A stretch of DNA of 64,000 nt from Candidatus Parcubacteria bacterium (GTDB lineage Bacteria > Patescibacteriota > Patescibacteriia > Patescibacteriales > UBA12075), in NCBI GenBank assembly GCA_023142915.1, contig JAGLIO010000001.1:126-64125 (forward strand). The letters are read 5' to 3'. Positions within the stretch are counted from its first letter, which is position 1, and the number at the start of each line of letters is the position of its first letter. The notes under the pieces are model-generated. The model did not search any database, was not told the DNA's origin, and saw nothing but the letters and a program-made list of their open reading frames with translations. Positions 25,455-40,806 of the stretch are shown one piece after another. The position numbers and the translations under genes are program-made.

Positions 25455-26498
25455 TTAATAATAAACCGCTTGCGTTTCCAAGTCTCTTTTTCTATTGCGC
25501 GCGACGTCTTCGCTGATTACTCCGTTTTTTAACAAATTATCTATTGATTTATTCATTGTTATCATACCATCTTTCACCCCCATTTGAATAGTGGAATAAA
25601 TTTGCTCTGTTTTATTATCGCGAATTAAATTTGCTATCGCGCGGTTATTAATCATTATTTCCCTGGCCGCCGTTAATCCTCCTCCTTTTTTTGGCAATAA
25701 TTGCTGAGAAATAACAGCTCTTAGAACAGAGGCAAGCTGGCCGGTAATTGAATTTTGATTTTGCAAAGGAAAAAAATCCACTATTCTTTCAACTGTTTCC
25801 GGGGCAGTTGTCGTATGCAGGGTGGAAAGGACTAAATGTCCGGTTTTCGCGGCTGTCAACGCCGCGGAAATAGTTTCAAGATCGCGCATTTCACCAACCA
25901 TAATCACATTAGGGTCTTGCCTTAAAGCGTATTTTAAAGCATCTGCAAAACCTGTTGTATCCCGTCCAAGCTGCCTTTGTTCAACAATGCTTTGCTTATC
26001 AGTAAAATCATACTCAATCGGATCTTCAATCGTAATTATATGCGAGCGCCTTTCCGCGTTTATTATATCAAGCATAACCGCCAAAGTGGTTGATTTGCCC
26101 GTTCCCGAAGGCCCTGTTAGCAATATTAAACCGTCTTTTAGATGAGTTAAAGAATAAATTATTTCATTTAAGCCGATCTCTTTTGCAGTTGGGATTTTTT
26201 TAGGAACCAGGCGGGCGGTTAAACCGATTTTGCCTCCCTGAAAATGAAGGTTAACCCGAAATCTGTTATCAAAAAATTCCATTGACATATCCATATCTCT
26301 TTTTCTTTCAAATCTGTCTTTTGTGTATTTATCCAAATAAAGGTAAAGAGCGTGCTTTAACTCGCCATAAGGAATAGCCTTTTCTTTAAAGCGAATTAAC
26401 TCGCCTGATACGCGCAATGCAGGCACGCTTCCTTCAACCAAATGCAAATCAGATGCGTTATTTTCAATAGCGGTTTTAAAATAAGGTTCTAACTCCAT
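25455..26498 (-). CDS. pilT: type IV pilus retraction ATPase PilT
   Basis: 347 aa. Walker A LLTGPSGTGKSTTLA, Asp box, GHLVLSTLHT His box, AIRE-like C-terminal region. Confidence 0.88.
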   Translation of the reverse strand: MELEPYFKTAIENNASDLHLVEGSVPALRVSGELIRFKEKAIPYGELKHALYLYLDKYTKDRFERKRDMDMSMEFFDNRFRVNLHFQGGKIGLTARLVPKKIPTAKEIGLNEIIYSLTHLKDGLILLTGPSGTGKSTTLAVMLDIINAERRSHIITIEDPIEYDFTDKQSIVEQRQLGRDTTGFADALKYALRQDPNVIMVGEMRDLETISAALTAAKTGHLVLSTLHTTTAPETVERIVDFFPLQNQNSITGQLASVLRAVISQQLLPKKGGGLTAAREIMINNRAIANLIRDNKTEQIYSTIQMGVKDGMITMNKSIDNLLKNGVISEDVARNRKRDLETQAVYY

Positions 26499-26551: not shown

Positions 26552-28504
26552 TCAAAAAAATAAAAAAATATCCACTTCTTTTTCCTCATCATCATCTTCA
26601 ATTTTTTTAATCAACCGATACAAAGTAAAATCGCTTGTTACTTGCTGTATTTTTTCTATTTCAAGTCCTGCTTCAGCCAAGCGCTTGTTATTTAAATAAT
26701 CAATATCTCTTTGTGGCAATGTAAAATTATAATAATACACAGGCAATAATTCAACAAGATTGGAGTATTTCGCGACCATTCTTTTATCGTCAAACAAGCC
26801 GACAATCACTTTGCGTTCAGGAAAAAGCAATTTGTCATGATAAAAAGTTATGATCGCGGAATTATTTTCAGTTAATTTTAAAACTTGGCTGTATTCAGCC
26901 CTGCTATTCTTTTGGCGCTGAGCTAAAAATATCAAGCCCTCTTCAGAACCGTATAAAACAAACGACAATGATCCGTAAAAAAATATTATTAAAAAAATTA
27001 CTCTTAAGCTAATATAATAAAATTCCTTATTTACTTTATAGGAAAACAAATTTATTTTCTTTCTTTTTTCTTGATAAAATTTATTGCAAAGCGAAGCAAT
27101 CGCGCGAGTGAAGCGCATCACAAACAAACTGGCAAAAGGCATTGCTCCCAAATAAATCGGCAGCCAATAGCGCGTGTAAGAATTGCCGATTGTGTGCCGG
27201 GTTTTATCCGGATTATCATAAAATTCCCAGCTGCCGTAATATATAATCAATATTCCGGAAATTATTAACAAAGAAAAAACATACAGCCAATGCCTTTTTT
27301 TATACTTGCGAAAATTTATCAAAAATATAATCGCGCCAACAAAAGCCGTCCAAAAAAGCCAAGAAAACATTTGCGCGAAATAAATAATCGCCATATTCAT
27401 GCTTTGTCGGGGATGAAGCCCGAAATAAAAAACAAAATCTTTAACTTTATTTAACAGCTCTCCGCATAAAGAAAAATCGCCCTTGACTGTTGAGCCGGCT
27501 AAACCGGAGCTTGCTTTGGCAATCGCCATGATTGATTGGTTCATTTCCGAATATCCGCCCAGATAATACGAGCCGTAAAGCGCTTTATTAAAATGCAATG
27601 CCGGCAGAATAGCAATTAATAAAAAAACAAGATAAACAAGCAAGCGGCTAAGCCCTATTTTTTTAATATTAAAAATCCATAAAAAAACAAGCATTGGCAA
27701 AAGCCATAACAGCTCGGAAGAACGGATCATTATTGTCGCGCCCATAAAAGCGCCTGCAAGCGCCGCAAACAAAAAATCCAAATAATAATTTTTATTTTTT
27801 TTATTATTCTTAAAAAATAATTTTATTCTTTTTGATAATTCAATCTTCTTTTTTGATTTATTTTTTAAATATTTAAGCCGTCCGCGGGCAAGAAGCAGGC
27901 TGTAATACAAACTTATAATCAAAAAAACAACAAACAATACATTATGAAACATGCTTCTAGCCGTGAAATAAATAAATGGCGGAAAAACTGCCAGCATTGA
28001 AGCTGAAAACCAAGCGTTGCTTTTATTAAAAATTCTTTTAACTAGCAAATAAAAATAAATAATGCCTATGGACGCGAAAAAAGGCGTTAAATACGGAATA
28101 ACTTTATATCCGAAAATTGAAGCGATTTTTCCGTAAACAAGTATCATTCCTAAAAAACTAACAGGCTTTAAACTGCCGTAATCCGAACGAAAACTTCGCG
28201 GATGCATTATATCGCCGGTAAATAAATTATAATTTTCTTCAATATTTAACTTGCTCTCTTGCGCGTAAAGCTTGGTAAAAATATAATTCGCTGTTTCATC
28301 CGGAGATGCCCATTTAACAAATTCTTGCCTTTGTCCGTTCTCGTCAACAAATTGCTGGGTATAATAGCTAAGACTGCTTGTGCCGATAAAAAAAACAAGG
28401 CTTAAAAGAATAATTGCCAAAAGCTGCCAATTTTTTTTGATTTTTTTTATAAAAATAAATTTCATAAAAAATAGTATTAAAAAATTATTATTTAATACTA
28501 GCAA
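26552..28504 (-). CDS. polytopic membrane protein, GT-C fold (ArnT/PMT-like) glycosyltransferase candidate
   Basis: 650 aa with more than 10 TM segments and an N-terminal periplasmic loop. The architecture resembles family 39/83 glycosyltransferases. No strict motif. Confidence 0.45.
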   Translation of the reverse strand: MLVLNNNFLILFFMKFIFIKKIKKNWQLLAIILLSLVFFIGTSSLSYYTQQFVDENGQRQEFVKWASPDETANYIFTKLYAQESKLNIEENYNLFTGDIMHPRSFRSDYGSLKPVSFLGMILVYGKIASIFGYKVIPYLTPFFASIGIIYFYLLVKRIFNKSNAWFSASMLAVFPPFIYFTARSMFHNVLFVVFLIISLYYSLLLARGRLKYLKNKSKKKIELSKRIKLFFKNNKKNKNYYLDFLFAALAGAFMGATIMIRSSELLWLLPMLVFLWIFNIKKIGLSRLLVYLVFLLIAILPALHFNKALYGSYYLGGYSEMNQSIMAIAKASSGLAGSTVKGDFSLCGELLNKVKDFVFYFGLHPRQSMNMAIIYFAQMFSWLFWTAFVGAIIFLINFRKYKKRHWLYVFSLLIISGILIIYYGSWEFYDNPDKTRHTIGNSYTRYWLPIYLGAMPFASLFVMRFTRAIASLCNKFYQEKRKKINLFSYKVNKEFYYISLRVIFLIIFFYGSLSFVLYGSEEGLIFLAQRQKNSRAEYSQVLKLTENNSAIITFYHDKLLFPERKVIVGLFDDKRMVAKYSNLVELLPVYYYNFTLPQRDIDYLNNKRLAEAGLEIEKIQQVTSDFTLYRLIKKIEDDDEEKEVDIFLFF

Positions 28505-28526
28505 ATATCTTTAATTTTGGCAAATA

Positions 28527-28549
28527 AAAACAATAAAACTCCCAATTCG
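28527..28549 (-). terminator. rho-independent terminator downstream of secreted repeat protein (actccc-aattc-gggagt)
   Basis: Hairpin with a flanking A/T run. On the minus strand it is followed by ttttattgttttt. Confidence 0.55.
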
Positions 28550-28581
28550 GGAGTTTTATTGTTTTTATATTTTAGTTTATT

Positions 28582-29790
28582 TTAATATTGTTCAAGGATA
28601 CTATCATCAACATTGTTAATCAGTTGTCCGGCGTAATTTTTAAGTTCTTCCAGACTGACAATATGCTTCTTTTTTCCGTTTACTATTACATAGGTTTTAA
28701 AATTTTTGCCGCGAAGCAAGGCGCCGTTGCCATATTTTTCTCCCAATATGCTTGCCCCCCCGTATTGCGCTAAAATTTCATCATCAACGTCCGTAATCGG
28801 CTGGCCCGCGTATTTTCTTAATTCTTGCAAAGTACTGATATGCTGTTTAACGCCGTTAACAATAACATATACTTTCATATTTCTACTGCGAATTAAGGCT
28901 CCGTTTCCGTATTCGGCGCCGAGCATACCTGTTCCGCCATATTGCGCCAATATTTCATCATCAACGTCCGTAATCGGCTGGCACGCGTATTTTCTTAATT
29001 TTTGCAAAGTATTAATGTGTTCTTTAACGCCATTATTGATGATATATATTTTTTTGTTGTTGCCGCGGATTAAAGCGCCGTCCGCGTAAAATCCGGCTTC
29101 TGATGCTGTTGAAACTTCAAATTCATCATCGCCCGCTTTCACTTCTTTTTTAATTTCCGATTTTACTTTTTTCTGTTGCTCTTTGGCAAGGCTAACAGAA
29201 TTTTGGCTGTTGCCATACATAACCGCGAAAATGCTTAAATGATTAACAGAAAAAGTAACTTTGCCGTTTGTTGAATCAAAATCAGCTCCCGGAATTTTAA
29301 CCCATTCATTTGTTTCGCTTTTAAAACAATAAACATCTACGCCCGAAATATCTCCGGGCATATCAGGCAATATAATGGTTATTACCATGTCTTTGCTAAA
29401 AGCTGTTATTGCATTATTATCTTCGTCTTTAGCGGTAATGCTGAATATTTTGCTTCCTATTATAAAAGCGTCGCCGTCCGGTTTTTGATTGGCGCTTGCG
29501 GCGCTCATTTGAATTTTAAAGGTTGCTCTGGTGTTTGCGGCTACGGTCTCTTTTGGAATCTCTAATTTTACTGTTCCTTGTTCTCCAAAATTGTTAGTGG
29601 CAGCCCCTTCTTGCTGAGACGACAATGTCATTGGATAATTAATTGCCGTAACAATTTTCGGCGCCGTTGATGATACGCCTCCACCTCCGCCATATCCTGA
29701 AGCGGCTTTAAATCCGAACAAAGAAATGGCGAAAATAAAACCTGTTAAGGCAATGGTTTTAAAATAAAATAATTTTTTTAATGAGTTCAT
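28582..29790 (-). CDS. secreted protein with three C-terminal 59-aa tandem repeats (YGNGALIRxxNxKVYVIVNGVKxHIxxLxELRKYAGQPITDVDDEILAQYGG)
   Basis: Signal peptide (LTGFIFAISLFGFKAASG) and three 177-bp near-identical DNA repeats spanning about 28585-29115. The repeat module resembles the C-terminal repeats of the 13204 protein. Confidence 0.6.
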   Translation of the reverse strand: MNSLKKLFYFKTIALTGFIFAISLFGFKAASGYGGGGGVSSTAPKIVTAINYPMTLSSQQEGAATNNFGEQGTVKLEIPKETVAANTRATFKIQMSAASANQKPDGDAFIIGSKIFSITAKDEDNNAITAFSKDMVITIILPDMPGDISGVDVYCFKSETNEWVKIPGADFDSTNGKVTFSVNHLSIFAVMYGNSQNSVSLAKEQQKKVKSEIKKEVKAGDDEFEVSTASEAGFYADGALIRGNNKKIYIINNGVKEHINTLQKLRKYACQPITDVDDEILAQYGGTGMLGAEYGNGALIRSRNMKVYVIVNGVKQHISTLQELRKYAGQPITDVDDEILAQYGGASILGEKYGNGALLRGKNFKTYVIVNGKKKHIVSLEELKNYAGQLINNVDDSILEQY

Positions 29791-29911
29791 AAAAAAATTT
29801 AAATTTATTTTTTAAAAAATAAATACATTGCACACTTATCCACATAGTAATATATATATAATATAACATATCTCTGTTAATGCGTCAAAAAATTTGCTAA
29901 AATAAAAACAC

Positions 29912-31426
29912 ATGAATAAAAAAAAATATACAATTATTATCTTAATCGCGCTTTTTATAATTCTTGGAAGTTTTCTAAGATTATATAAATTATCAAACCA
30001 ATCATATTGGATGGACGAAGGCTATACAGTAAACGCCGTTATTTCAGGTATTGAAAACGGGCATAAAAATTTTTCTTCTATTCTTGATTCAGGAAAAACT
30101 TATTTTTGCCCGCTTTATTGCTATCCGACAGAATCCATAACAAAAATATTCGGCGCAAATTCTTTTTCCTTTCGCTTGATTTCCGCGCTATCCGGCATTT
30201 TATTTATTTTAATTATTTTTTTGATTGTTAAAAATTTATTCAATTCTCAAATAGCGCTTTTATCTTCTTTTTTTATAACTTTTTCTTATTGGCAAATCGC
30301 ATGGTCAAGACAGGCGCGCTGGTACACGCTTTTTACAATATTTTTCTGGCTGGCTTTATTTTGTTTTTATAAATTTTTTTATAATAAAAAAAATAAAATT
30401 ATATATTTAGCACTTACGATTTTATTTACGATATTGGCGGTTTTAGCGCATAAAATAGCATTGCTCTTGCCAATGATAATGTTTTTTTGGGTAATTATTG
30501 ATTGCTCGCTTGCTAAAAAAAAGAATATTGCAAAATTTATAAAAAATATTATTTTGGCCTTAATATTTTTTATCGCGATAAATTTGATTATAAAATACGC
30601 TTTTAATATCAATTTTATTTTTGCTTTTTATGAAAAAATGTCTCTCCATTATAATCTGCCGTATTATTTAAGTTTTTATTTAAGAAATTATTGGTTTTTG
30701 ATTGTTCTCGCTATTTTCGCGATTTTTAACTCTAAAGAGAAAAAGAAAATATATTTTTTGCTTTTGCCTATTTTGTCATATTTAATATCTTTGTCTTTTT
30801 TAACAAATATAATTCATTACCGTTATCTATTTCACATTACGCCTGCTTTATACATTTTAGCGTCTTTCGGTATTATTGATATTTATAATAAAATAAAACA
30901 TAATTTATTTAAAAATATTTTTGTTCTTGCTCTAATTTTAATATTTTTTCTTAGCAATGGCGTAATTTTACCGCGTTCTTTTTATTTGCTTGAATCAGAC
31001 GATCCTGCAAAATTAGGGCAAAGACCGCATTATGCTTACACGCCTCAGCCGGATTTTAATTCAGCTTATGCAATAATTAAAGACAATCTAAAAAGCAATG
31101 AAATAGTAATTTCATCGCATCCGCATTTTAATAAAATATTTTTAAACAGACCCGGTTATTGGCTAAAATACAGTTATCTTGGCATTGAAAATTATGTCAG
31201 CGCAATAAATGAAGACAAAGAATATTATGTCGGCGCTAAAGTTATTGATGATTTAAAAGAATTAAAGCAAGCAATGAAAAATAATCACGGCTATATTGTT
31301 TTTGACTTTATGTCTATTGACAATCGCATTCCAACGGAAGAGATTGATTATATAAAAAAAAATTCAAAGTTTATATTTATTAATGAAACAAACAGCTATT
31401 CTAAAATTTGGGTTTATGAATTTTAG
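29912..31426 (+). CDS. ArnT/PMT-family (GT-C) membrane glycosyltransferase
   Basis: 504 aa. N-terminal TM bundle with the periplasmic-loop YWMDEGYT motif region typical of dolichyl/undecaprenyl-phosphate sugar transferases, and a C-terminal soluble domain. Confidence 0.55.
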   Translation: MNKKKYTIIILIALFIILGSFLRLYKLSNQSYWMDEGYTVNAVISGIENGHKNFSSILDSGKTYFCPLYCYPTESITKIFGANSFSFRLISALSGILFILIIFLIVKNLFNSQIALLSSFFITFSYWQIAWSRQARWYTLFTIFFWLALFCFYKFFYNKKNKIIYLALTILFTILAVLAHKIALLLPMIMFFWVIIDCSLAKKKNIAKFIKNIILALIFFIAINLIIKYAFNINFIFAFYEKMSLHYNLPYYLSFYLRNYWFLIVLAIFAIFNSKEKKKIYFLLLPILSYLISLSFLTNIIHYRYLFHITPALYILASFGIIDIYNKIKHNLFKNIFVLALILIFFLSNGVILPRSFYLLESDDPAKLGQRPHYAYTPQPDFNSAYAIIKDNLKSNEIVISSHPHFNKIFLNRPGYWLKYSYLGIENYVSAINEDKEYYVGAKVIDDLKELKQAMKNNHGYIVFDFMSIDNRIPTEEIDYIKKNSKFIFINETNSYSKIWVYEF

Positions 31427-31498
31427 CCAAAGCTAAAAATTAAAAAGTGTCAATTATGTTTGTGGACTTGCGCATTAATTTGACAGTGTAGCTACATT

Positions 31499-31780
31499 AT
31501 GATAAAATATAGCTATAAATTAAACTTGTTTTTTATGACCCAAAAAGATAAAAAAATAGAACACTTTCTGGCTAATCCTAATAATTTTAAATATCAGCAA
31601 ATAAAAATAATACTTATCAATTTAGGGTTCAATGAAATTCAAGCCAAAGGCAGCCACGTCAAATTTAAGCACACTTTAATCACCCATGATCTGATTATCC
31701 CAATTCATTCCAATGATTGTAAAACTTATTACAAAAAACAAATTGTTAAAATTATTAAAAAATATAAGCTTAATTATTAA
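31499..31780 (+). CDS. HicA/YcfA-family toxin-like protein (true start possibly Met13 at 31535)
   Basis: KGSHVKFKHTLITHDLIIPIHSNDCKTYYKKQIVKIIKKY fits the GSH...P.H... HicA signature. Confidence 0.6.
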   Translation: MIKYSYKLNLFFMTQKDKKIEHFLANPNNFKYQQIKIILINLGFNEIQAKGSHVKFKHTLITHDLIIPIHSNDCKTYYKKQIVKIIKKYKLNY

Positions 31781-31791
31781 TTTATAAAAAT

Positions 31792-32112
31792 ATGAAAACT
31801 GCCAGTAAACACTCTATTACTATAAATAATAAAAAATATTTTTATTCATTAGAACCAAAGGGCTCAAAAACCACTTTTGTTGAATGCGAGGCTGCAAAAA
31901 TAAATCAAAAATTTTTAAACGAAGACATTCCGACCCTGTTAAATGATTTATCTAATTTGATACTAGCTGAAAAAAAATATCAACATCAACAAAGCGCGAT
32001 TATTCGTTTTAGAATTAAACCCGAAGATAAAAAATTAATTGAACAAAAAGCGCGTAAAAGAGGATATGATAATATATCAACATTTATGCGTGATTTAGCG
32101 CTAACTAATTAG
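31792..32112 (+). CDS. putative antitoxin with C-terminal ribbon-helix-helix domain
   Basis: 106 aa. The C-terminal SAIIRFRIKPEDKKLIEQKARKRGYDNISTFMRDLAL matches the RHH (CopG/ParD-like) pattern. Lies 12 bp downstream of the HicA-like ORF. Confidence 0.5.
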   Translation: MKTASKHSITINNKKYFYSLEPKGSKTTFVECEAAKINQKFLNEDIPTLLNDLSNLILAEKKYQHQQSAIIRFRIKPEDKKLIEQKARKRGYDNISTFMRDLALTN

Positions 32113-32150
32113 AAAAAAAGGAAAGGGTCTGCTTTTATCCGCAAAATATC

Positions 32151-34604
32151 ATGCTAAAAAAATCAAAAAAAAAATACACTAAAAAGTCAAAGAAAATTTT
32201 TATTATAAGGATAAAAAGCAAATATCATAATTTGAATATTTTTTCCAAATTAATCGTGCTTTCTTTGCCATTGATTCTTATCGCTTATTTATGCATTAAT
32301 TTTTATCAGGCAGTGGATTATGAAGCCGGTTATACAATAGATTTTAATAAAGAAAATTTTAGAAATACAAAGCTGCCTCTGTATATTGACGAAGACCCGG
32401 CTTCTCACAAATTTATGTCAACAGGCATAATAAACAATGTCCATTACGCGGAAATGTCAGGCTCCCCCATTTCTTTTGTCTGGCAGCCTGAAGAATTCCC
32501 CCTTAATAAAACAATTACGGTGTCGGCTTTAATCAAAGACGAGGGCGACTGGGAAATCTCTTTATTCTGCCCAAACTGCCCCAAAAACGAACAATACGAC
32601 TGGCAGCCGTTTTATTACGGCAAACTGAATGACTATGTCCTAGCGGCCAAATCCGACGACCTTTATATTTATTCCCTTAACAATTTTGACTGGGAACAGG
32701 CGACAACAACCAAGGAGTGGCTGGAAAAAAATGTGCCGCAAGGGACTAGCGTGGAAATTTTAGATGACGCATACACAAAATCCAAACTCGTTAATCAAAA
32801 TATTGATTTTATTGAAGGCTCATGGACTGAAATTAATAAAACTTTGCGCGGCAAACATGAATTTTATGTTTATTTAAAGGATAAATTGGATTTGGAAATG
32901 GTTAAAAAAGATTTTAACAGCTATGACGGCGCTGATGATGTAAATATTGTTCTTTATGATTTGAATGATAATGTAATTATGAAAGCAACAATTGAGGACG
33001 ATGGGATTGATGTTAAAAACGATATAAGTGAATTTGATCCGCCTATTAAAAAAAGGATTGAATATGATATAAAAAAACAAGGAGTTTATAAATTGGCATT
33101 TGAGCCAATTGATAAAGCCGGAGCTGATTGGACCATTAAGTACATAAAAATAAACACAAATAAAATAATTTTTACAGGCAACGCAAACCTTATTTTAGAT
33201 CCCGGCGTTTTATACACCGAGCTAGTTGAAAACAAAGAACTAAAAATTTATGTTTGGCACGGCAATGCCGTTCAGACTATAAAATTTATTAATGAAGATA
33301 CTGCTGTAGAAATGGAAATTACCAAATCTGAATTGGGAAAATGGCAATTTATAGAATTAAATCCCGGCGCTTATGAAATCAGCTTTGCCGGCGATCAGTA
33401 CATTGGCAACGCGAATTTCGCAATTAACAAAAAAACATATTTTGAACCGTTTATTTATGATTTAAGCAAGAAAAAAGAGCAATCCATTGTTTTGGCAAAT
33501 TATTCATTTACAAAAAATAAAAACTGGACAGACGTTGCTAAAAATTTTACTAAAAATGATATTAAAAAACTGGAAGATTTAAAAAAAGTTAAATTTTTAA
33601 TCAGAAATAAAGAATTGAATAAAAAATTTAAAAAGGAAAAAAATTTATACGATAATGGATTTTATCCTTTGGCTAAATTTAATGAGTATAAATTATGGGG
33701 CCAAAAAGATTTGGAAAGCTATAGCGCAAATGTTGATAATTTAATTGATTGGCTGAAAAACCTTCTCCCTAACGGCTCCGGAATAGTGGCTGACGAATCT
33801 TTGGCTATTGAACGGGCGGATTTTATTAACAACGAAGAGCCGGAAGAATTCGTTCAATATGATGACCCCATAAATGAATTAAACTTTGCTTTGCGCGGTT
33901 CGCATGAATTTTACGTTTATATTAATAATCATTTTAAGGCGGAGATTGATAAGGAAGATATAAACGCTTACGCCGGCAAAGACGAAGTTGAAATCAGCTT
34001 AATAAATTCAGCCGGAGATATAATGTGCGACAAAATAATGGCTGATGACGAAAATGAATCTGATGACAGGAATTCTCCCGATTCAGTTCAAACTTATTTT
34101 AACTGCCCCAACATTAAAAAAGGAGTTTATATTCTTAGTTTAAAAGGCTTGTCGGCTGGAGTTGGTAATATTGGCAATGATTTTGTAATCAAACAGTTAA
34201 AAATTAATACAAATAAAATCATAATTAAAAACAGGATTTTAAATATTGAGCCAGTTGAGTTGTATGTTAATAATAAAACAGACAAAGAGATTGACTTATA
34301 TTATTGGCACAAAGACAAGGATCAGATTATTGAAATTTTAGGAAACGACGCGAAAAATATTGAATTAACAAAAGATGATAAAGGAAAAAACGTAGAATAT
34401 TTATTAATTAATGGATATAAAAAAATAAATATGCCAAAAGGAGATGTTGTTATTTCTAATAATAATTTTGCTTTTAAAGAAGAAAATTGGTTTTATCCGA
34501 TTAGTATATCAATAGAAACAAATCTTAACGCAAATTTTGCCTTATTTAAAGATGCCTACGCAGAATCTTTATTTATTAAAAATATTAATATTGACGTTCA
34601 ATAA
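32151..34604 (+). CDS. large exported/membrane-anchored protein with an internal ~350-aa duplication
   Basis: 817 aa. Basic N-terminus plus one TM. Two homologous halves (LRGKHEFYVYLKD...IKYIKINTNKIIF / LRGSHEFYVYINN...IKQLKINTNKIII). Its stop is adjacent to the start of the next GT-C gene. Confidence 0.6.
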   Translation: MLKKSKKKYTKKSKKIFIIRIKSKYHNLNIFSKLIVLSLPLILIAYLCINFYQAVDYEAGYTIDFNKENFRNTKLPLYIDEDPASHKFMSTGIINNVHYAEMSGSPISFVWQPEEFPLNKTITVSALIKDEGDWEISLFCPNCPKNEQYDWQPFYYGKLNDYVLAAKSDDLYIYSLNNFDWEQATTTKEWLEKNVPQGTSVEILDDAYTKSKLVNQNIDFIEGSWTEINKTLRGKHEFYVYLKDKLDLEMVKKDFNSYDGADDVNIVLYDLNDNVIMKATIEDDGIDVKNDISEFDPPIKKRIEYDIKKQGVYKLAFEPIDKAGADWTIKYIKINTNKIIFTGNANLILDPGVLYTELVENKELKIYVWHGNAVQTIKFINEDTAVEMEITKSELGKWQFIELNPGAYEISFAGDQYIGNANFAINKKTYFEPFIYDLSKKKEQSIVLANYSFTKNKNWTDVAKNFTKNDIKKLEDLKKVKFLIRNKELNKKFKKEKNLYDNGFYPLAKFNEYKLWGQKDLESYSANVDNLIDWLKNLLPNGSGIVADESLAIERADFINNEEPEEFVQYDDPINELNFALRGSHEFYVYINNHFKAEIDKEDINAYAGKDEVEISLINSAGDIMCDKIMADDENESDDRNSPDSVQTYFNCPNIKKGVYILSLKGLSAGVGNIGNDFVIKQLKINTNKIIIKNRILNIEPVELYVNNKTDKEIDLYYWHKDKDQIIEILGNDAKNIELTKDDKGKNVEYLLINGYKKINMPKGDVVISNNNFAFKEENWFYPISISIETNLNANFALFKDAYAESLFIKNINIDVQ

Positions 34605-36728
34605 ATGAATATAAAAAAACATTGGAAAAAAACATTGTTATCCCTATTTTTAACAACGCTATTGATTAGCTCAATAGCGTTAGTTTTTGATTGCTTTAGC
34701 GGAATTATAAGTTACTATGTTCAAATCGGGCTGATTTATTTTATTAATATTATATTATTTCTAATCGTTTTTTATTTTTATCAAGATGAGTGTGAAAAAA
34801 AAGTTAAGGATTTTTCATATTACTCACAATTAGAATTTATTGCTAAATATATTTTTTTAGCCATATTATTTCTTATTGCCATTAACCAACTATTTGCCGA
34901 TTTTGAGTGGAGTAAAAATTTTTATAACATTTATTTGTCCTGGATAAATAATATTAAAAGTTATTTAACGGTTTTGGCTATTTTAACCGGCGGTTTTACT
35001 TTTTGGGTTAACCGAAAAAATGTTGAGGTTGATTTAAAAAAAGAGCAGAAAGAGGAGGTGCTGGAAGAAAAAAAAAGAGCGAAAATTTTTGATAAAAAAT
35101 ATGGAAAGTGGAAGCCGAAAAAATTAAAGTTTAATTCTTTTAAAAATATTATTTTTTCTATTTTTTATTTGCCGTTTTTTGTTGTTTCGTTTTTATTATT
35201 TACTTTTGCGAGGTGGGTGCATAAAGAAGGATATAGATATAGCTTGGGGCTGATCATTCTTTCATTTTCAGGATTATTACTAAGAATTTACAATATTAAA
35301 TTACAAAAACTATGGATTGATGAATTAATATCTTTAAGCGCAATTAACAACATAATAAATTCTGGAATACCATCTTTGCCTTCTGGGGTAATGTATACTA
35401 GAAATATTTTTTTTCATTATTTACTCGCTTTTATTAAAATTTTATTTAATACAGAAGATATTAAATTAAAAATAATTTCAGTCATAGCTGGTTTTTTAAC
35501 GATAATATTTGTTTATATTTTTACAAAAAAAATATTAAATAAAAAAGTTGCTATTATTTCCTCCCTATTAATAACATTCTTCAATTTTGAAATAGCTTGG
35601 TCAAGACAAATTCGAGCATACATGTTGCTTCAATTTGCTATTATTTTATGTGTTTTTGTTTACAGTAGACTTAAAAAAAATGTTTCATTAAAAAATCTAT
35701 TGTTATTTTTATTTAGCGCTATATTCACAGTTTCAGTAAGTTTAATTGGAATAATTATCGTTTGCATTCTTATTTTGGATTTTTTTATTGAGAAAAAAAA
35801 TAGAACGAAATTATTACATTTAATAAAAAAGAATACTAAACTTTTTATATTAATATTTTTTATTTTTTCTCTTTTTATGTATGCAGGAAATATTTTTAGC
35901 GCAATAATTTTTATATCCCATTCCATTCTTAATCCTATTAATAATACTCATAACTATATAAAATTATTTAATTCATTTTTTCCTTATTTGTACGTATTAA
36001 TGCCATTTTTGCTATTAACACTCATTTTTAGCTTCAATAAATTTATAAAAACAATATATTTTTATATTATTTTGATACTATCATTAACTTTTTTTATAAT
36101 TGAAGCATCTTGGTTGAGATATTTAACTTGTGCATTGCCTTTTCTTATTATTATTTCATCTTTTTTTATACATATTTTATATATAATATATTGTCAGAAA
36201 AAAAATAAATTTATTAATATTTTATTTTTTATCTTTTTTTTAACACCTTTTTTTATCTCAGATTTATCTTTATTTCCTCAAAATAATTATCAAATTCAAG
36301 AACCTCAAACAAATTTTAAATTAAGCTATGAATACATATATAAAAACATTAAATCTTCCGATACTGTAATTTCAATTACGACGGGCAATATTCCCGCCCA
36401 TTACTATTTAAAAGAAAAATTTATATTAAACAAAAATTATATCTTTACTTTATTATTGGATAAACAAAAAAAGGCGTATAGATCATATAAAAAAAATGGA
36501 ATATGGAAAGAAAATTATGTTGGTACAACTATAATAACAAATGAAATGGAATTAAAAAAAATTATTAAATATAATTCTGGATACCTTGTTTTTGATCAAC
36601 AAAAATTATATCACATCGATAATTCAATAAAAAATTTGCTAACCACAATGAATTTTCTTGAAGAATATTCCGATGAAACTATTAGATTATATTACTGGGA
36701 CAGCGAATCTCATTCGTTTTCCTTATAA
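34605..36728 (+). CDS. polytopic membrane protein, ArnT/PMT-like GT-C glycosyltransferase candidate
   Basis: 707 aa with more than 12 TM segments. The central region resembles 29912..31426 (WIDELISLSAIN...). Translationally coupled to the upstream gene. Confidence 0.5.
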   Translation: MNIKKHWKKTLLSLFLTTLLISSIALVFDCFSGIISYYVQIGLIYFINIILFLIVFYFYQDECEKKVKDFSYYSQLEFIAKYIFLAILFLIAINQLFADFEWSKNFYNIYLSWINNIKSYLTVLAILTGGFTFWVNRKNVEVDLKKEQKEEVLEEKKRAKIFDKKYGKWKPKKLKFNSFKNIIFSIFYLPFFVVSFLLFTFARWVHKEGYRYSLGLIILSFSGLLLRIYNIKLQKLWIDELISLSAINNIINSGIPSLPSGVMYTRNIFFHYLLAFIKILFNTEDIKLKIISVIAGFLTIIFVYIFTKKILNKKVAIISSLLITFFNFEIAWSRQIRAYMLLQFAIILCVFVYSRLKKNVSLKNLLLFLFSAIFTVSVSLIGIIIVCILILDFFIEKKNRTKLLHLIKKNTKLFILIFFIFSLFMYAGNIFSAIIFISHSILNPINNTHNYIKLFNSFFPYLYVLMPFLLLTLIFSFNKFIKTIYFYIILILSLTFFIIEASWLRYLTCALPFLIIISSFFIHILYIIYCQKKNKFINILFFIFFLTPFFISDLSLFPQNNYQIQEPQTNFKLSYEYIYKNIKSSDTVISITTGNIPAHYYLKEKFILNKNYIFTLLLDKQKKAYRSYKKNGIWKENYVGTTIITNEMELKKIIKYNSGYLVFDQQKLYHIDNSIKNLLTTMNFLEEYSDETIRLYYWDSESHSFSL

Positions 36729-37656
36729 AAAAATAACCAATTAAACCATAAATAATAATGGTTAATAATATAATCAAATGAAATTTTAATATATAAATTA
36801 ATGCTATTTCGGATTCATAGCCAAGTTTGATTAAAAAATAACTCCAACCAGCTTCAAAAATTCCAAAATTTGCGAATGTTTTTATCGGAATTAACGTTAT
36901 TGATATAATAATACACGAAATAAATAAAGTATTAAAAAAAGTAATACTTATTCCAAGTATGATTAATATTAAATACCCAAAAAAAATTCTGTATAACCAA
37001 TATGCAAATGTTGAAGCTAATAAAATTATTATAATTTTGCTATTTAATTTTTTTAATTCAATTACACTGTTATTAATAAAATTAAATATTTTATTAACAA
37101 ATATTTTGTTTTTAAATACACTACGTATTAATATTTTTATTTTATTTCGAAATAAAATAAAAACGGCTACAAGTACAGCGACTGTAATTAGTAATAATGT
37201 AAACACAAGAGAAATATTAAAAGTAAAGCCATTGCTTAGTTCCGCGCTTGAATAGATACTAGCAATTAAAAATAGATAAAATATTATTATCATATCAAAA
37301 ATACGAATTAAGCCCAGGCCATTAAGTCTATTTACTAAATTTATTTTAAAGAATTTTTTAAGATTGGTGATATAGGAAAATTCCCCAATTCTAAAAGGCA
37401 AAATACTTAACATTAAATTACAGTAACATAGCACAAAGAACAGTTTAAATTTATCTGATATTTTATATATTTGAGAATATCGATAGGTGTTAATTATTTT
37501 AGATACAGAGTATATCACTATAATAAAAATAATAAATAATATGTTAGTATCATTTAGGGTATTGATTAATTGCCCAAATTTAATATTTTTAAATAAATAA
37601 AAGATAATAAAAAAAGAAAGCAAAACAGGGTATAATTTTATTATTATTTTCATCAT
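36682..37656 (-). CDS. flippase-like (LPG-synthase-TM/UPF0104-type) membrane protein
   Basis: 324 aa, about 8 TM. The pattern and its position adjacent to a GT2 gene are typical of the 'flippase-like domain' family frequently paired with GT2 enzymes. Confidence 0.45.
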   Translation of the reverse strand: MMKIIIKLYPVLLSFFIIFYLFKNIKFGQLINTLNDTNILFIIFIIVIYSVSKIINTYRYSQIYKISDKFKLFFVLCYCNLMLSILPFRIGEFSYITNLKKFFKINLVNRLNGLGLIRIFDMIIIFYLFLIASIYSSAELSNGFTFNISLVFTLLLITVAVLVAVFILFRNKIKILIRSVFKNKIFVNKIFNFINNSVIELKKLNSKIIIILLASTFAYWLYRIFFGYLILIILGISITFFNTLFISCIIISITLIPIKTFANFGIFEAGWSYFLIKLGYESEIALIYILKFHLIILLTIIIYGLIGYFFIRKTNEIRCPSNII

Positions 37657-39635
37657 TATTTTTTAATTATAAATATTGCTTGATCGCCTAATTTTCTTTT
37701 GTTATATTTTTTGGCTAAAAAATTATTATACAAGATATAAAACAAATTAAATATACCAAGCGCATGATTTTTTTTCTTTTTTAAATGATAAAAATTTATT
37801 CCTTTCTTATTTAATTGGCTATAAAATAATGATGGGCCAACAGAGTCATGAATGATTTTAACTATATTTAAGTTTGCTTTTTCAGCTAAAAGTGCCATAC
37901 TTTTTTGAGTATGAACGAATAAATGTCGTGGCGCGTCTATTTGAAACCAAAATTCTTTAAATTTTTCCCAAGCGCATGAATCTGCGACTGGTGTTCTAAT
38001 TATGCATAAACTTTTATTCGTCATTAATTTATATATTTTTAATAAAACTTGCGCTGGATTATCCATGTGTTCAAAAGAATGATGCAACATTATAATATCA
38101 AATTTTTCATCGCTATTCACTAATTCTGTTAAATTTTTTTTGTAGATTTTAAGTCCATTGGGATAAATAATTTTGTCTTTATTTAAAAAAGGGTCTATTC
38201 CTATACAATTTTTAAAACCAATTTCAGTTAAATAATACAAAATTGAGCCCTTGCCGCATCCTATGTCAAGAATTTTGTGTTCTTTGTTAATATCAATATA
38301 TTTGAAAAAATCTAATTTCGAAATTGAAGTTAAAAAAGAAATAATATTATAGATAATTTTTTTATTAACGGCACTTTTAATGGTTAATAATTTTATTTTT
38401 TTTATTAGAATATTTTCAGTTGTAAAATCAAATTTTGAATAATAATCTTTAGCATAATATTCAAAAATATTTTTGGGTATTTCTAAAAGCTGTAAACATC
38501 CGCAATAAGAACAATATAAATAAGGAAAATATTTTTTCATTCCTAGTATTTGTTCCTTTACCCAATAAATATTGTTGTGGTTTATATTATTACAAATCTT
38601 ACAAAGTTTATTTTTAACATTTTTTTTGTTAAATTCTAGAAATAGTTTTTTATATTTTACCCTACTTATTCTTTCATTTTTTTTAATCCCACATCTTTTT
38701 GTAAGCATTCTTGGTAAATAGTATAAAATATTTAAATAAATTTTAATCATAATTTTCACCATCCCCAAAAGTCCAATTTTAGATTTTAATTTATTAACCG
38801 ATTTTAATTTATTTTTTTGAAATAGACTTGTAAAATTCCAATAAAAATCTCTAAATGGATAACTTAGCAAATCTAACAAACTAAAATTTTTGATTGCCAC
38901 AAAATAACTATTCCTTTTTGAATAAAAAGCTTTAAAGGCGGATGCTACGCCACTGGTTTGCGAATGCAAATGTATTAATCTTGATTTTGGCGCATAAAAA
39001 CATTTCCACCCTGCCAGCCTTGACCTAAATCCCAAATCTAAATCCTCAGCATAGGCAAAAAAATCTTCATCAAATAGTCCTACATCTTTCAATAAATTTC
39101 TGGAAAATAAAGTGGAAACTCCACCAGGGCAAAAAACTTCCCTTTCTTTATTGTATTTATTTGGATCATATCCAAAACCAAATGAACATCCACCAATTTT
39201 ATTGCCGATTAAATTTTTATAAAGTTTTAATCCGATATTATGAATTTTGCCGTCAGATAAAAGAGTTTTTGTGGAAACCATTCCGCATTTTATATTTTTA
39301 TATTTTTTTATTACTTTTACCATTTCTAAAAGCCAATCCTTTTCAACAATAGTATCATTATTTAATAATGCAATATATTCAACATTCTCATCTTTTAACG
39401 CCTCTTTAATGCCAATATTATTGCCCTTGGCAAAACCAGTATTATAATCTAATTCAATAATTTTTGTTTTAGAAAAACTCTGTCTGACAAAATCAACGGA
39501 TTTATCATGCGAACCATTATCAACAAAATACACATCAAAAATTTTATAAGTTTGATTAAAAACCGCATTTAAACAATTCTTTAAAAAATTAAATCCATTC
39601 AAATTAACTATAATAATAGCCACTTTATGATTCAT
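37656..39635 (-). CDS. bifunctional family-2 glycosyltransferase / class I SAM-dependent methyltransferase fusion
   Basis: N-terminal GT2 (VAIIIVNLNGFNFLKNCLNAVFNQTY...YFVDNGSHD; DxD region), a central Cys4 zinc ribbon (CKICNN...CSYCGC), and a C-terminal MTase (KILDIGCGKGSILYYLTEIGF...FDIIMLHHSFEHMDNP). Confidence 0.8.
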   Translation of the reverse strand: MNHKVAIIIVNLNGFNFLKNCLNAVFNQTYKIFDVYFVDNGSHDKSVDFVRQSFSKTKIIELDYNTGFAKGNNIGIKEALKDENVEYIALLNNDTIVEKDWLLEMVKVIKKYKNIKCGMVSTKTLLSDGKIHNIGLKLYKNLIGNKIGGCSFGFGYDPNKYNKEREVFCPGGVSTLFSRNLLKDVGLFDEDFFAYAEDLDLGFRSRLAGWKCFYAPKSRLIHLHSQTSGVASAFKAFYSKRNSYFVAIKNFSLLDLLSYPFRDFYWNFTSLFQKNKLKSVNKLKSKIGLLGMVKIMIKIYLNILYYLPRMLTKRCGIKKNERISRVKYKKLFLEFNKKNVKNKLCKICNNINHNNIYWVKEQILGMKKYFPYLYCSYCGCLQLLEIPKNIFEYYAKDYYSKFDFTTENILIKKIKLLTIKSAVNKKIIYNIISFLTSISKLDFFKYIDINKEHKILDIGCGKGSILYYLTEIGFKNCIGIDPFLNKDKIIYPNGLKIYKKNLTELVNSDEKFDIIMLHHSFEHMDNPAQVLLKIYKLMTNKSLCIIRTPVADSCAWEKFKEFWFQIDAPRHLFVHTQKSMALLAEKANLNIVKIIHDSVGPSLFYSQLNKKGINFYHLKKKKNHALGIFNLFYILYNNFLAKKYNKRKLGDQAIFIIKK

Positions 39636-40806
39636 TTATTTTCAATAAATTCAAATATTGCTCTGTAATATTGTTTAAATTAAAATTATTAATATCACTT
39701 AAATTTTGTTTTGAAATTTTTTCTTTTAATTTATGGTTAGATAATAATTTTTTGACTTTTTCAGTTATTTTTTTAAAATTTTTTGGATCTATTAATAAGC
39801 CATTTTCACCATCCCGAATTAAATCAACCTGTCCTCCATTATTTGTAGCTACAACCGGCAATCCAACCTGCATTGCTTCTTGAATAACAATGCCAAAGCC
39901 CTCATGAATTGAGCTTAAAACAAATATATCTGAATTGCATAAATATTGAAATTTTTTTTCCTCAGAAACTAACCCTGTTAAGCATAATCTATTTTCAATT
40001 TTTAATTCTCTTGCTAATTTTAATAAATTTTCTTTTTCTGGTCCATTTCCGATAATTATACCGTTAACATTATTATCAAGTAAGGCAAGAGCTTTTATAA
40101 AATATTCAAATCCTTTTCTCTTTATAAGTCTGCCTGCTCCTATTATATATTTTTTATTCTCTTTCATATTCAATTCTTTTCTTGATACTTTTTTAAAATC
40201 AAAAAATTCATATGGCAAGGGAATAATTTTTATTTCTTTTTTTGGATTATAATATTTTATAGCGTTATTTTTTGTATTAGATGATTGAGCAATAATAAAA
40301 TTTACTCTATTTAATAAAAATTTTACAACAACTTTTAATATAAAATTTTTATGGGGAGAATTTTTTGTTGTTGGATTATAAACATCTCCCCCGTGCAGTG
40401 ATAAAATATTTTTTATTCTAAATATTTTCGACAAAATAAAACCCAAGGGACCGGTAGGAATCACAAATTGAGTATTTATGAAATCATATTTGTTTCTTAA
40501 ACAAAGAAAAAAGCCTTTTGCAAAAGCGCAAAAAGGATAACTCAACATAGAAACCATTGTGGCTGTTTCTAGTTTTTTTCTGCCAAAAACTTTTACTCTG
40601 TAAACGTTAATTCCATTAATAATTTCAAATTTTTTCAATCCTTTGAACCAAGATGTTAAATAATCAACCTCATACCCATTCCCAATAAATCCTTTTGCCA
40701 ACTTATATGAAGCAACACCGCCACCGCCACCCAGCGGTGGAAATTCATAATTTAAAACCAAAATTCTTTTTTTATTATTTTCTTTTTTCATCCCTACTTC
40801 TTCCAA
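39625..40806 (-). CDS. family-4 glycosyltransferase (GT4)
   Basis: C-terminal EGFGIVIQEAMQVGLPVVATNNGG (E-X7-E) and an N-terminal GT4 Rossmann domain. 393 aa. Confidence 0.85.
   Translation of the reverse strand: MEEVGMKKENNKKRILVLNYEFPPLGGGGGVASYKLAKGFIGNGYEVDYLTSWFKGLKKFEIINGINVYRVKVFGRKKLETATMVSMLSYPFCAFAKGFFLCLRNKYDFINTQFVIPTGPLGFILSKIFRIKNILSLHGGDVYNPTTKNSPHKNFILKVVVKFLLNRVNFIIAQSSNTKNNAIKYYNPKKEIKIIPLPYEFFDFKKVSRKELNMKENKKYIIGAGRLIKRKGFEYFIKALALLDNNVNGIIIGNGPEKENLLKLARELKIENRLCLTGLVSEEKKFQYLCNSDIFVLSSIHEGFGIVIQEAMQVGLPVVATNNGGQVDLIRDGENGLLIDPKNFKKITEKVKKLLSNHKLKEKISKQNLSDINNFNLNNITEQYLNLLKINES

Follow-up and report, generated by a model that had tools for sequence, protein, structure and literature searches.

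The stretch of DNA analysed here, referred to as the window, comprises 64,000 nucleotides of contig JAGLIO010000001.1 from an uncultured, ultra-small bacterium of the Candidate Phyla Radiation (CPR)/Patescibacteria (Candidatus Parcubacteria), and is AT-rich (GC about 0.30-0.39). We examined a group of genes at positions 26552-40806 which an earlier note, made from the sequence alone, had described as one 14-kb island for building a lipid-linked glycan and transferring it outside the cell. It contains three large membrane proteins resembling glycosyltransferases of the C fold (GT-C), an uncharacterised membrane-anchored protein termed protein X, and a convergent block of glycosyltransferase and flippase-like genes. 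All of the open reading frames (ORFs) listed in the note were found where it had placed them, and the principal features are the following.

26552-28504, minus strand: third GT-C-like membrane protein, 650 amino acids (aa); PMT_2 30.8 bits over only 65 residues
29912-31426, plus strand: conserved GT-C protein, 504 aa ("PMT2_500"); PMT_2 46.5 bits; first gene of the conserved core
32151-34604, plus strand: protein X, 817 aa, bitopic; no Pfam match; N-terminal transmembrane (TM) helix and duplicated beta-sandwich module
34605-36728, plus strand: second GT-C protein, 707 aa; PMT_2 29.2 bits
34605-35200 (boundary approximate), plus strand: N-terminal extension of the second GT-C protein, about 200 aa; about 4-5 TM helices and a long charged helix
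35200-36728, plus strand: variable GT-C catalytic core of the 707-aa protein; first part of the putative exchangeable cassette
about 35200-40806, ~5.6 kb, no strand assigned: putative exchangeable cassette of low GC content at third codon positions (GC3); GT-C core, flippase-like gene, GT2-methyltransferase fusion and GT4
36682-37656, minus strand: LPG_synthase_TM (MprF-flippase-like) protein, 324 aa; Pfam PF03706 81.4 bits (cutoff 33.4), full length
37656-39635, minus strand: fusion of a GT2 glycosyltransferase and an S-adenosylmethionine (SAM) methyltransferase; Glycos_transf_2 76 bits, Glyco_tranf_2_3 55 bits, Methyltransf_23 76 bits
39625-40806, minus strand: GT4, 393 aa; Glycos_transf_1 150 bits, Glyco_transf_4 47.5 bits; first gene of the minus-strand operon

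All three large membrane proteins scored above the gathering score of Pfam PMT_2 (PF13231; 26.1 bits), and the hidden Markov model (HMM) search on which the earlier note had staked its GT-C assignment thus supported it in every case; hydropathy analysis gave 9-16 peaks in each, as is the case for polytopic proteins, with about 9-10 TM segments in the 504-aa protein. In each of them the GT-C part has a D-E pair behind its first helix (PDETANY, WMDEGYT and WIDELIS). For the 650- and 504-aa ORFs that helix is also the first of the whole protein, WMDEGYT being the motif after TM1 of the latter, and in the 707-aa ORF it lies at about residue 230; with the predicted loop orientation, the acidic motif was assigned to the first extracytoplasmic loop of the polytopic core in each protein. 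In an alignment of 21 sequences, from which a GT-C profile (A3) was derived, D239, E240, R227, I330 and Y339 are invariant and R289 and R337 nearly so.

When sequences in the PDB were searched with the A3 profile, ArnT (E 4.8e-7), AglB (2.9e-4) and Pmt4 (4.9e-3) were retrieved; single-sequence phmmer searches of the same sequences with each of the three proteins found nothing, and these relatives were therefore reached by profile and fold searches only. An AlphaFold model of the 707-aa protein (predicted local distance difference test score, pLDDT, 76.6) yielded 26 Foldseek matches at E<=1e-3, all of them GT-C proteins, headed by ArnT (5ezm; E 2.9e-7, TM-score 0.57 normalised to the target) and followed by STT3, AglB, PglB, ALG9, Pmt4 and Emb. 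The 504-aa protein matched A3 with 445.9 bits (E 1.5e-135); since it is paralogous over its full length to the catalytic part of the modelled 707-aa protein (28% identity over 495 aa, E 6e-23), it is covered by the same fold assignment. The 650-aa protein is the weakest call, with an A3 E-value of 1.9e-4, a BLAST E-value of 0.004 against the 504-aa protein and, as its best NCBIfam match, archaeo_STT3 at 21.5 bits, far under the cutoff of 450. Sequence and model evidence together indicate that all three are GT-C proteins of the ArnT/PMT_2 class (CAZy GT83/GT39-like), the putative activity of which would be the transfer of sugar from a polyprenyl-phosphate-linked donor. The O-mannosylation suggested in the earlier note was not borne out: PF02366, MIR and PMT_4TMC gave no match in any of the three at E<=0.1, PMT_2 being the only domain found, and no Ppm1/DPM1-like GT2 (polyprenol-phosphate-mannose synthase) was present among the window ORFs scanned. 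The island proteins also lack an STT3 Pfam match and the WWDYG motif, and the likeness of the GT-C proteins to AglB, PglB and STT3 is one of fold level only.

The NCBI annotation of the second GT-C gene (P0022) starts at Met152 and gives a protein of 556 aa, omitting 151 residues (window 34605-35057). The N-terminus of the 707-aa protein (M..WKK..L..F..T.L.IS) is kept in homologues; because the omitted residues are conserved in this way, the long ORF and its tight coupling to X stand, and the public gene model is probably truncated.

Protein X consists of a lysine-rich cytoplasmic tail, one TM helix (residues 30-55) and two beta-sandwich/jelly-roll modules of about 290 aa (about residues 150-435 and 500-785). 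The modules represent an internal duplication (31% identity over 303 residues, E 2e-27) that the earlier note had recognised, as it had the coupling to the next gene: the TAA stop of X directly abuts the ATG of the 707-aa ORF (caaTAAATGaat), and the distance between X and the larger GT-C gene in seven loci is 0, +17, -11, -4, -11, -11 and +1 nt. The AlphaFold model of X (mean pLDDT 85.8) is all-beta beyond the TM helix and contains no disordered linker. Scans of Pfam and NCBIfam gave no match, and Foldseek found no specific fold, only a generic jelly-roll, carbohydrate-binding module, lectin, Cry-protoxin or tail-fibre beta-sandwich likeness (TM-score about 0.1). A profile of X collected 931 representative clusters at E<=1e-3, of which 234 reached E<=1e-30. 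The usual length in the family is 450-600 aa with one module and about 800 aa with two, and some proteins of 1290-1299 aa carry a single module at the C-terminus. Exactly one TM segment was predicted in 128 of 162 members (N-terminal in the window protein and assumed so in the others), none of the 162 is fused to a GT-C, flippase or DUF1616 domain, and ten positions are invariant in the family alignment. The Ser+Thr content of X, 8.6%, equals that of LepA and IleRS; there is no Ser/Thr-rich tract, the richest 20-residue stretch holding five such residues, and the eight N-x-S/T sequons are not conserved, each occurring in 5/20 sequences at most.

The LPG_synthase_TM protein, the GT2-methyltransferase fusion and the GT4 are present as claimed in the earlier note, but they do not run in the same direction as the GT-C/X/GT-C trio: they form a convergent minus-strand block, in which GT4 and the fusion overlap by 11 nt and the fusion and the LPG-like gene by 1 nt, and the end of the LPG-like gene overlaps that of the 707-aa GT-C gene by 47 nt. 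The LPG-like protein has about 8-9 TM segments by hydropathy, matches the TIGR00374 "flippase-like domain" at 23 bits (under cutoff) and stops at residue 324 with no aminoacyl-phosphatidylglycerol synthase domain; from its family it is a candidate translocator of a lipid-linked glycan. In the fusion, the GT2 domain occupies residues 4-266 (~1-270) and Methyltransf_23 residues 449-593; the stretch that joins them contains CxxC...CxxC cysteine pairs and may be a Zn ribbon. The best NCBIfam matches of the GT2 domain are generic (PgaC, MftF, HpsN, rhamnosyltransferase) and not ArnC/GtrB-like, and the domain has only one marginal hydrophobic segment and lacks the two C-terminal TM helices. It represents a GT2 type, about 365 aa long, that is very common and occurs elsewhere fused to a methyltransferase (P0186, P0188), GT4 (P0185), LPG_synthase_TM (P0187), GT9 or radical SAM domain. 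The GT2-methyltransferase fusion thus appears to be modular and recurrent; as a unique feature it was rejected in view of P0186, P0188 and the other partners. The LPG-like protein is probably tied functionally to this GT2 type, since P0187 joins a homologue of the one to a domain of the other. A methyltransferase in such company, which the earlier note had taken for a departure from textbook operons, is not unusual, as GT2-methyltransferase fusions and methyltransferases recur in related loci and a methyltransferase is also found in Haloferax (AglP; PMC3871713). The GT4 matches glycolipid-type GT4s weakly, e.g. N-acetylglucosaminyl-PG synthase at 58.8 bits (cutoff 480).

Neither GtrA nor an ArnE/F-type small flippase was matched by Pfam, the flippase-like gene here being LPG_synthase_TM. 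No Wzx (Polysacc_synt) flippase is encoded in the island, the sole Wzx-like gene of the window lying 33 kb off at 584-2020, and Wzy_C, O-antigen ligase, EpsG, Wzz, Bac_transf and WecA-type proteins had no match in the island; MraY (61301-62350) is the only Glycos_transf_4 protein of the window.

Conserved core and variable cassette in related loci

Loci of relatives were gathered from X alone, by contig look-ups in a protein collection, one species-genome scan and one metagenome scan, and were annotated with Pfam, NCBIfam and local HMMs. Of the 32 non-redundant loci obtained, 30 had sufficient flanking sequence for judging. A GT-C-like polytopic gene adjoins X or shares its cluster in 28 of these 30; 24 of the 28 have a significant A3 match, and in the other four the candidate is just an unassigned protein, 500-700 aa long, with at least eight TM segments. 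Fourteen loci display a Parcubacteria-type order, in which a GT-C gene of about 500 aa is followed by X and then by a larger GT-C gene of 640-810 aa, after which a convergent block holds a flippase, glycosyltransferases and modifying enzymes; the 504-aa GT-C gene is directly upstream of X in L007, L010, L025 and L027. Recurrent synteny in about 30 loci indicates that the trio and the flippase/glycosyltransferase cassette belong together, and the lipid-linked, extracytoplasmic glycosylation pathway proposed in the earlier note is the right kind of explanation. Its word "periplasmic" is loose: according to published genome analyses, CPR bacteria have no lipid A/lipopolysaccharide (LPS) pathway (PMC5220378).

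The island is not homogeneous, as the earlier note had supposed, but is divided into a conserved core and a cassette, some 5.6 kb long, of distinct composition. In seven Parcubacteria loci the identity of the 504-aa GT-C is 39-80% and that of X 31-73%, compared to 25-40%, with low scores, for the second GT-C; between L003 and L009 the respective values are 80%, 73% and 36%. When the second GT-C of the window was compared to that of L007 in a sliding window, residues 1-200 were 54-62% identical and the remainder 20-38%. The GC3 within this gene is 0.22-0.28 up to about residue 200 and 0.15-0.20 thereafter. Per gene, GC3 is 0.175-0.194 for the 707-aa GT-C, LPG-like, GT2-methyltransferase and GT4 genes, 0.307 for X and 0.27-0.42 for flanking genes, and window GC dips to 0.22-0.25 in the cassette region. 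The left flank is syntenic with L003, from another Parcubacteria metagenome-assembled genome (MAG), and identity falls towards the cassette: 90% for a PilT-like protein, 87% for a DUF5656 protein, 75% for a PDZ protein, 68% for the 504-aa GT-C, 47% for a 402-aa secreted protein and 45% for X. No orthologous match of the second GT-C core was found in L003.

The third, 650-aa GT-C protein appears from these comparisons to belong to a different subfamily. It was not counted in the core, because it is only distantly related to the other two, its gene has a normal GC3 (0.33), the otherwise syntenic L003 lacks it, and a strong hairpin with a 20-bp stem (28524-28568) separates it from the neighbouring 402-aa gene.

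The contents of the cassette differ from locus to locus. Where the window holds LPG-like, GT2-methyltransferase and GT4 genes, L003 has Wzx, GT2 and two GT4 genes, and the flippase at the equivalent position is of the LPG type in L001, L009, L023 and L028 and of the Wzx type (Polysacc_synt) in L003, L005, L007, L010, L025, L026 and L038. Modifying genes at this position are a pyruvyl transferase and an FrhB-like protein in L007, a sulfotransferase and a methyltransferase in L010, a CapK-like ligase and a hexapeptide acetyltransferase in L001, and a CapK-like ligase and PGA_cap in L009; L005 carries four GT4 genes and a UDP-glucose dehydrogenase. Full-length ArnC/PgfS/AglJ-like GT2 genes occur in L001, L005 and L010 (129-163 bits with NCBIfam, the ArnC equivalog cutoff being 529) and, by local HMM, in L007, L023 and L040. 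With two to five glycosyltransferases plus modifying genes per cassette, such content is typical of repeat-unit or oligosaccharide loci. The genes are also mosaic. For the GT4 of the window, identity is 72% to the counterpart in L007, a Wzx locus, and 56% to the one in L023; the GT2 domain shares 59% with the stand-alone GT2s of L010 and L023, and the LPG-like protein shares only 30% with its L023 counterpart. These data directly support the identities of the genes, the GT-C fold, the synteny, the place at which the conserved part gives way to the variable one, and the mosaic make-up of the cassette. Judged by its sequence, the island would be a fixed chromosomal site with a recombining, serotype-like surface-glycan locus, bearing a signature like that of O-antigen serotype loci. 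Scans of the whole window for tRNA genes and Rfam families gave zero matches; it has no tRNA-linked integration site.

X was found beside GT-C-like genes also in DPANN archaea (Woesearchaeota, Nanoarchaeota), in a Methanosarcinales MAG and in similar metagenome contigs. In this archaeal-type order a GT-C-like gene of about 520 aa precedes X, which is followed by one or two small DUF1616 membrane proteins (L011, L015, L016, L018, L019, L030, L031, L034, L036 and L040), either encoded whole by one gene of about 260 aa or divided between two, of about 125 and about 140 aa; L019 has both halves in one gene, but with their order exchanged. ArnC-like GT2, GT4, methyltransferase and LPG_synthase_TM genes often precede the set in the same direction, e.g. 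in L040. The X profile matches archaeal-type loci at E 1e-38 to 1e-88, as against 1e-6 to 1e-13 or nothing for the adjoining GT-C. X belongs to a large uncharacterised family and is better conserved than its GT-C neighbours, also between bacteria and archaea. Orthology between the archaeal GT-C-like genes upstream of X and the 504-aa GT-C was rejected, BLAST being not significant; the two have a weak PMT_2 or EpsG profile similarity in common. Homology between the N-terminal extension of the second GT-C and DUF1616 was likewise not supported (BLAST E 0.05-0.17, hhalign probability 8.7%), and the shared position after X may be regarded as a positional analogy only. The one literature search made for DUF1616 gave nothing on its function; the family came up only as an N-glycoprotein in a Haloferax glycoproteome. 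In two loci from MAGs labelled Nanoarchaeota (L014 and L017) the GT-C beside X differs from that of other archaeal-type loci in matching the Parcubacteria-type profile very strongly (E 9e-119 and 2e-76), which could reflect recent inter-domain transfer or the mis-binning of CPR contigs into DPANN MAGs.

A proposed pathway and its alternatives

The reading which we consider probable is that of a surface-glycoconjugate locus, composed of a conserved core for extracytoplasmic transfer and an exchangeable low-GC cassette. The core would comprise the 504-aa GT-C, the bitopic X and the membrane module of about 200 aa at the N-terminus of the second GT-C; the catalytic core of the latter, the LPG_synthase_TM-type translocator, the GT2-methyltransferase fusion and GT4 would make up the cassette. 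According to this scheme, GT4 and the GT2 domain would build a short glycan on a polyprenyl-phosphate carrier on the membrane's cytoplasmic side, the primer enzyme being encoded elsewhere, and the fused methyltransferase would O-methylate a sugar. The lipid-linked glycan would then cross the membrane via the LPG_synthase_TM protein, to be recognised by the cassette-specific GT-C core and transferred or polymerised outside the cell. X and the N-terminal module may serve as a cassette-independent scaffold or carbohydrate-binding partner, and the 504-aa GT-C may carry out a step that does not depend on the cassette, e.g. attachment to an invariant acceptor or the addition of a shared sugar. What we infer in this scheme is the lipid carrier, the sequence of the steps, the acceptor, the sugars and the accessory role of X.

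Several points weigh against it. To our knowledge, characterised PMT_2/ArnT-type GT-C enzymes, oligosaccharyltransferases aside, transfer individual sugars, which they take from polyprenyl-monophosphate donors. We know of no case in which this GT-C subfamily transfers a glycan en bloc or polymerises it, nor of an LPG_synthase_TM protein for which the flipping of polyprenyl-linked glycans has been demonstrated. Among the window ORFs we found neither a priming phosphoglycosyl transferase (WecA/WbaP type) nor a nucleotide-sugar gene nor an ArnC-like GT2, so the pathway as encoded here is incomplete. The low GC3 of the cassette is partly expected for membrane proteins in an AT-rich genome; the genes of the soluble GT4 and GT2-methyltransferase, however, have a low GC3 too. 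The arguments for an accessory role of X are indirect, and X has no specific fold match. Finally, scans for sigma-70 promoters (118 promoter-like sites vs 103±13 in shuffled sequence) and intrinsic terminators (14 vs 11±3.5) were not above expectation, so that operon boundaries were drawn from gene overlaps only.

A bolder form of the same scheme is that X and the adjacent GT-C, together with DUF1616 in archaea or the N-terminal module in Parcubacteria, constitute an unrecognised glycan-assembly complex across CPR, DPANN and some Euryarchaeota. X would then be an obligatory carbohydrate-binding co-polymerase or acceptor-presenting subunit, the GT-C a new polymerase or oligosaccharyltransferase handling whole oligosaccharides, and the product the main serotype-variable surface glycoconjugate of these tiny episymbionts. 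We hold this extension to be tentative and rather doubtful.

One alternative, that X is a dedicated acceptor glycoprotein, i.e. a membrane-anchored surface protein or adhesin travelling with its own glycosyltransferases, is close to the substrate role given to X in the earlier note. It has precedents in the adhesins of the Streptococcus mutans Pgf cluster, which encodes GT-C enzymes along with its adhesin substrates (bioRxiv 10.1101/2024.05.05.592596), and in the pilin encoded with TfpO. X is extracytoplasmic, its gene adjoins GT-C genes, it varies in module number, and its beta-sandwich array is generically like those of adhesins and tail fibres. On the other hand, Ser and Thr are scarce in it, it lacks conserved sequons as well as a disordered linker, its conservation exceeds that of the adjoining enzymes, also across domains of life, the start/stop overlaps at either end of its gene suggest that its expression is tied in a roughly fixed way to that of membrane enzymes of low abundance, and its N-terminal anchor looks uncleaved and bears a long lysine-rich tail. 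We therefore favour, on sequence and model grounds, an accessory role: with its low Ser/Thr content, lack of a conserved sequon and conservation above that of its GT-C neighbours, as well as a single anchor, a well-folded ectodomain and no instance of fusion, X looks like a partner of the enzymes, and we consider its being the substrate possible but unlikely. A little less likely still is a decoration system of the Gtr/ArnT/YfhO type, in which a GT2 makes a polyprenyl-phosphate-monosaccharide, a small flippase moves it and each GT-C adds one sugar to a lipid, a protein or a polymer of the wall that is already in place; the cassette's GT4 and GT2 would then have another function. Most characterised relatives of the PMT_2/ArnT fold do use such donors, ArnT is the best structural and sequence match of the GT-C proteins, and six related loci carry the ArnC/PgfS/AglJ-like GT2 genes described above (L001, L005, L010, L007, L023 and L040). 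The island, however, has no ArnC/GtrB-like GT2, the GT2 domain being of the rhamnosyltransferase/EpsD/HpsN type and without the two C-terminal TM helices, nor does it have a GtrA-family flippase; 2-5 glycosyltransferases, Wzx-type flippases and modifying enzymes would be superfluous for a single-sugar pathway, and the GT-C core co-varies with the whole cassette.

The product may also be a membrane-anchored lipoglycan like the lipomannan and lipoarabinomannan (LM/LAM) of mycobacteria, with GT4 glycosylating an inner-leaflet glycerolipid, the LPG-like protein flipping it, the GT-C proteins elongating it outside and X acting as a carbohydrate-binding chain-length factor. The combination of GT4, GT2, several GT-C proteins and an MprF-type flippase domain parallels PimA/PimB, Ppm1 and PimE/MptA/MptB/EmbC, the MprF-type flippase family moves modified glycerophospholipids, and the GT4 has its weak glycolipid-type matches. 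Yet none of these reaches a family cutoff, and half of the related loci carry a Wzx-type flippase, which points to polyprenyl-linked oligosaccharides; we regard this version as improbable. Even less probable is that one of the PMT_2-like proteins is a translocator of lipid-linked sugars rather than a transferase. Purified Haloarcula Agl23 translocates a lipid-linked oligosaccharide in proteoliposomes (PMC11182771), and TIGR03663, "flippase activity-associated protein Agl23", is the best NCBIfam match of both the 504- and the 707-aa protein. The scores (38 and 24 bits) are nevertheless far under the family cutoff of 126, both proteins retain the invariant D-E and Arg typical of catalytic GT-C enzymes, and every cassette has a separate flippase-like gene.

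Inserted and neighbouring genes

Three further genes lie within the island, one of which is the secreted repeat protein that the earlier note had correctly placed there; the other two were not mentioned in it.

28582-29790, minus strand: secreted protein, 402 aa; signal-like N-terminus, one N-terminal hydrophobic segment
31499-31780, plus strand: HicA toxin; Pfam HicA_toxin 35.9 bits (cutoff 27)
31792-32112, plus strand: candidate ribbon-helix-helix (RHH)/NikA-like antitoxin; NikA-like 27.4 bits (cutoff 27), RHH_1; not a canonical HicB

The pair fits a HicAB toxin-antitoxin system, there being a HicA domain and an adjacent small RHH DNA-binding partner. The pair (31499-32112) is inserted between the 504-aa GT-C and X and stands outside the glycan system. 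The same slot holds a Fic gene in L003 (8641-9705) and Fic plus HEPN/nucleotidyltransferase genes in L009 (2465-5904), and is empty in L007 and L010, where the two genes abut; the slot thus appears to be an insertion hotspot for toxin-antitoxin and defence genes.

The 402-aa protein contains the motif GYGGGGG; its N-domain is rich in beta structure, and its C-terminal part holds three repeats, each of about 59 aa. A Pfam scan of it gave no match. Homologues lie divergently upstream of the core in L003 (47% identity), L009 (38%) and L001 (33%, N-domain). The L001 homologue (6010-7233) has a precomputed PG_binding_1 match and, in the BLAST alignment, no counterpart of the window's C-terminal repeats; these repeats are for that reason suggested, not demonstrated, to be wall binders. 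From its sequence the protein is probably wall-associated, and it is a possible acceptor. After its N-terminal domain the L001 homologue contains a Thr/Ser/Ala/Pro-rich linker (ATNSTTALATIPTVPTQEVATSTPVV); the linker of the window protein is not Ser/Thr-rich. Segments of this type are O-glycosylated in streptococcal GT-C systems.

The rest of the window contains the housekeeping genes of LepA, RecJ, IleRS, ClpB, MurG, FtsW, MraY and two copies of cofactor-independent phosphoglycerate mutase (in tandem and paralogous, 2026-5206; 531 and 526 aa), genes of DUF5656 and DUF5667, two Pfam families about which little is known, and two ATPases of the type IV pilus type, PilT-like at 25455-26498, adjoining the 650-aa GT-C gene, and PilB-like at 51520-52707. 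The Wzx-type (Polysacc_synt) flippase gene at 584-2020, at the left end of the window, may be part of a second glycan locus beyond it. Two restriction-modification systems are encoded at 8207-10167 and 11427-12954; one combines a HaeIII-type endonuclease and a C5 cytosine methylase, the other a MutH/MvaI-like nuclease and an N4/N6 methylase. A PBECR-type nuclease fragment is found at 10517-10897. Two paralogous Schlafen AlbA_2 + HATPase_c_4 (+HTH) proteins are encoded at 41050-42357 and 53934-55349. The former gene directly flanks the glycan cassette and contains a perfect 12-bp x 5.2 tandem repeat (41230-41292) encoding GGVN five times; just downstream of the stop of the latter lies a perfect 11-bp x 3.4 repeat (53897-53933). 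An envelope/stress-type cluster at 45482-51486 encodes a MopE-like metal-binding repeat protein, whose gene has a 198-bp x 3.2 tandem repeat (45796-46433), CreD, a subtilase (S8), a caspase-like C14 peptidase and LemA.

Comparison with known systems

Among known systems, the Wzx-dependent serotype loci of O-antigens and capsules share with this one the conserved flanks around a low-GC mosaic cassette, the set of several glycosyltransferases, a flippase, modifying enzymes and one highly divergent, glycan-specific polytopic membrane enzyme, as well as the Wzx-type flippases that related loci carry at the equivalent position. Unlike in those loci, no Wzy/Wzy_C/EpsG polymerase, Wzz/polysaccharide co-polymerase (PCP) or priming transferase was detected here, the glycan-specific enzyme is an ArnT/PMT_2-type GT-C with a conserved N-terminal module, and the window has an LPG_synthase_TM protein instead of Wzx.

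N-glycosylation in Haloferax volcanii (AglJ/G/I/E, AglP, AglM, AglR, AglS and AglB; PMC3871713) is similar in that GT2/GT4 enzymes build a lipid-phosphate-linked glycan with the help of a SAM methyltransferase (AglP) and a Wzx-like translocator (AglR), and AglS, which depends on dolichyl-phosphate-mannose, adds the last sugar outside the cell (PMC3871713). The UDP-glucose dehydrogenase AglM has a counterpart gene in L005, and the X family is found in archaeal loci too. In contrast, the island has no STT3/AglB signature, no window protein reaches any Agl equivalog cutoff, and X and DUF1616 are not described Agl components.

The Pgf system of Streptococcus mutans (PgfS, PgfE, PgfM1, PgfM2 and adhesins) likewise clusters two GT-C genes with a GT-A enzyme and surface-protein genes (PMC5856776), catalysis takes place at the outer face, and PgfS/ArnC-like GT2 genes occur in related loci. 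PgfM1 and PgfM2, however, belong to the YfhO family and not to PMT_2, the targets of Pgf are Ser/Thr-rich disordered regions, of which X has none, and Pgf is a core-genome operon with no exchangeable cassette, whereas the window lacks a PgfS-like GT2. The ArnC/ArnT and GtrA/GtrB/GtrC systems resemble the island in extracytoplasmic transfer from a lipid-linked donor, ArnT being the closest solved relative; they differ from it in their ArnC/GtrB-type GT2 and ArnE/F or GtrA flippase, which the window lacks, while the window adds GT4, GT2 and methyltransferase genes, a second paralogous GT-C and X. The similarity to MprF lies in the LPG_synthase_TM match over the full length of the 324-aa protein (81 bits), but this protein has no aminoacyl-phosphatidylglycerol synthase domain and is tied genomically to glycosyltransferases, not to lipid aminoacylation.

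The island as such is an already known, ordinary class of object, and our literature search found no paper describing an X/GT-C module in CPR bacteria. What is new is that GT-C and X form a conserved core, that this core is distributed over two domains of life, and that the second GT-C is split between an N-terminal part that is conserved and a catalytic core that varies; such a split lends itself naturally to exchanges of glycan specificity. The surfaces of these ultra-small bacteria mediate host attachment and phage exposure, and a signature of surface-antigen diversification familiar from O-antigen and capsule loci is seen here in a lineage reported to be without an LPS pathway. The pairing of X with GT-C in CPR, DPANN and methanogens points to a system shared between domains, and the X family provides a handle for annotating hundreds of "hypothetical" genes.

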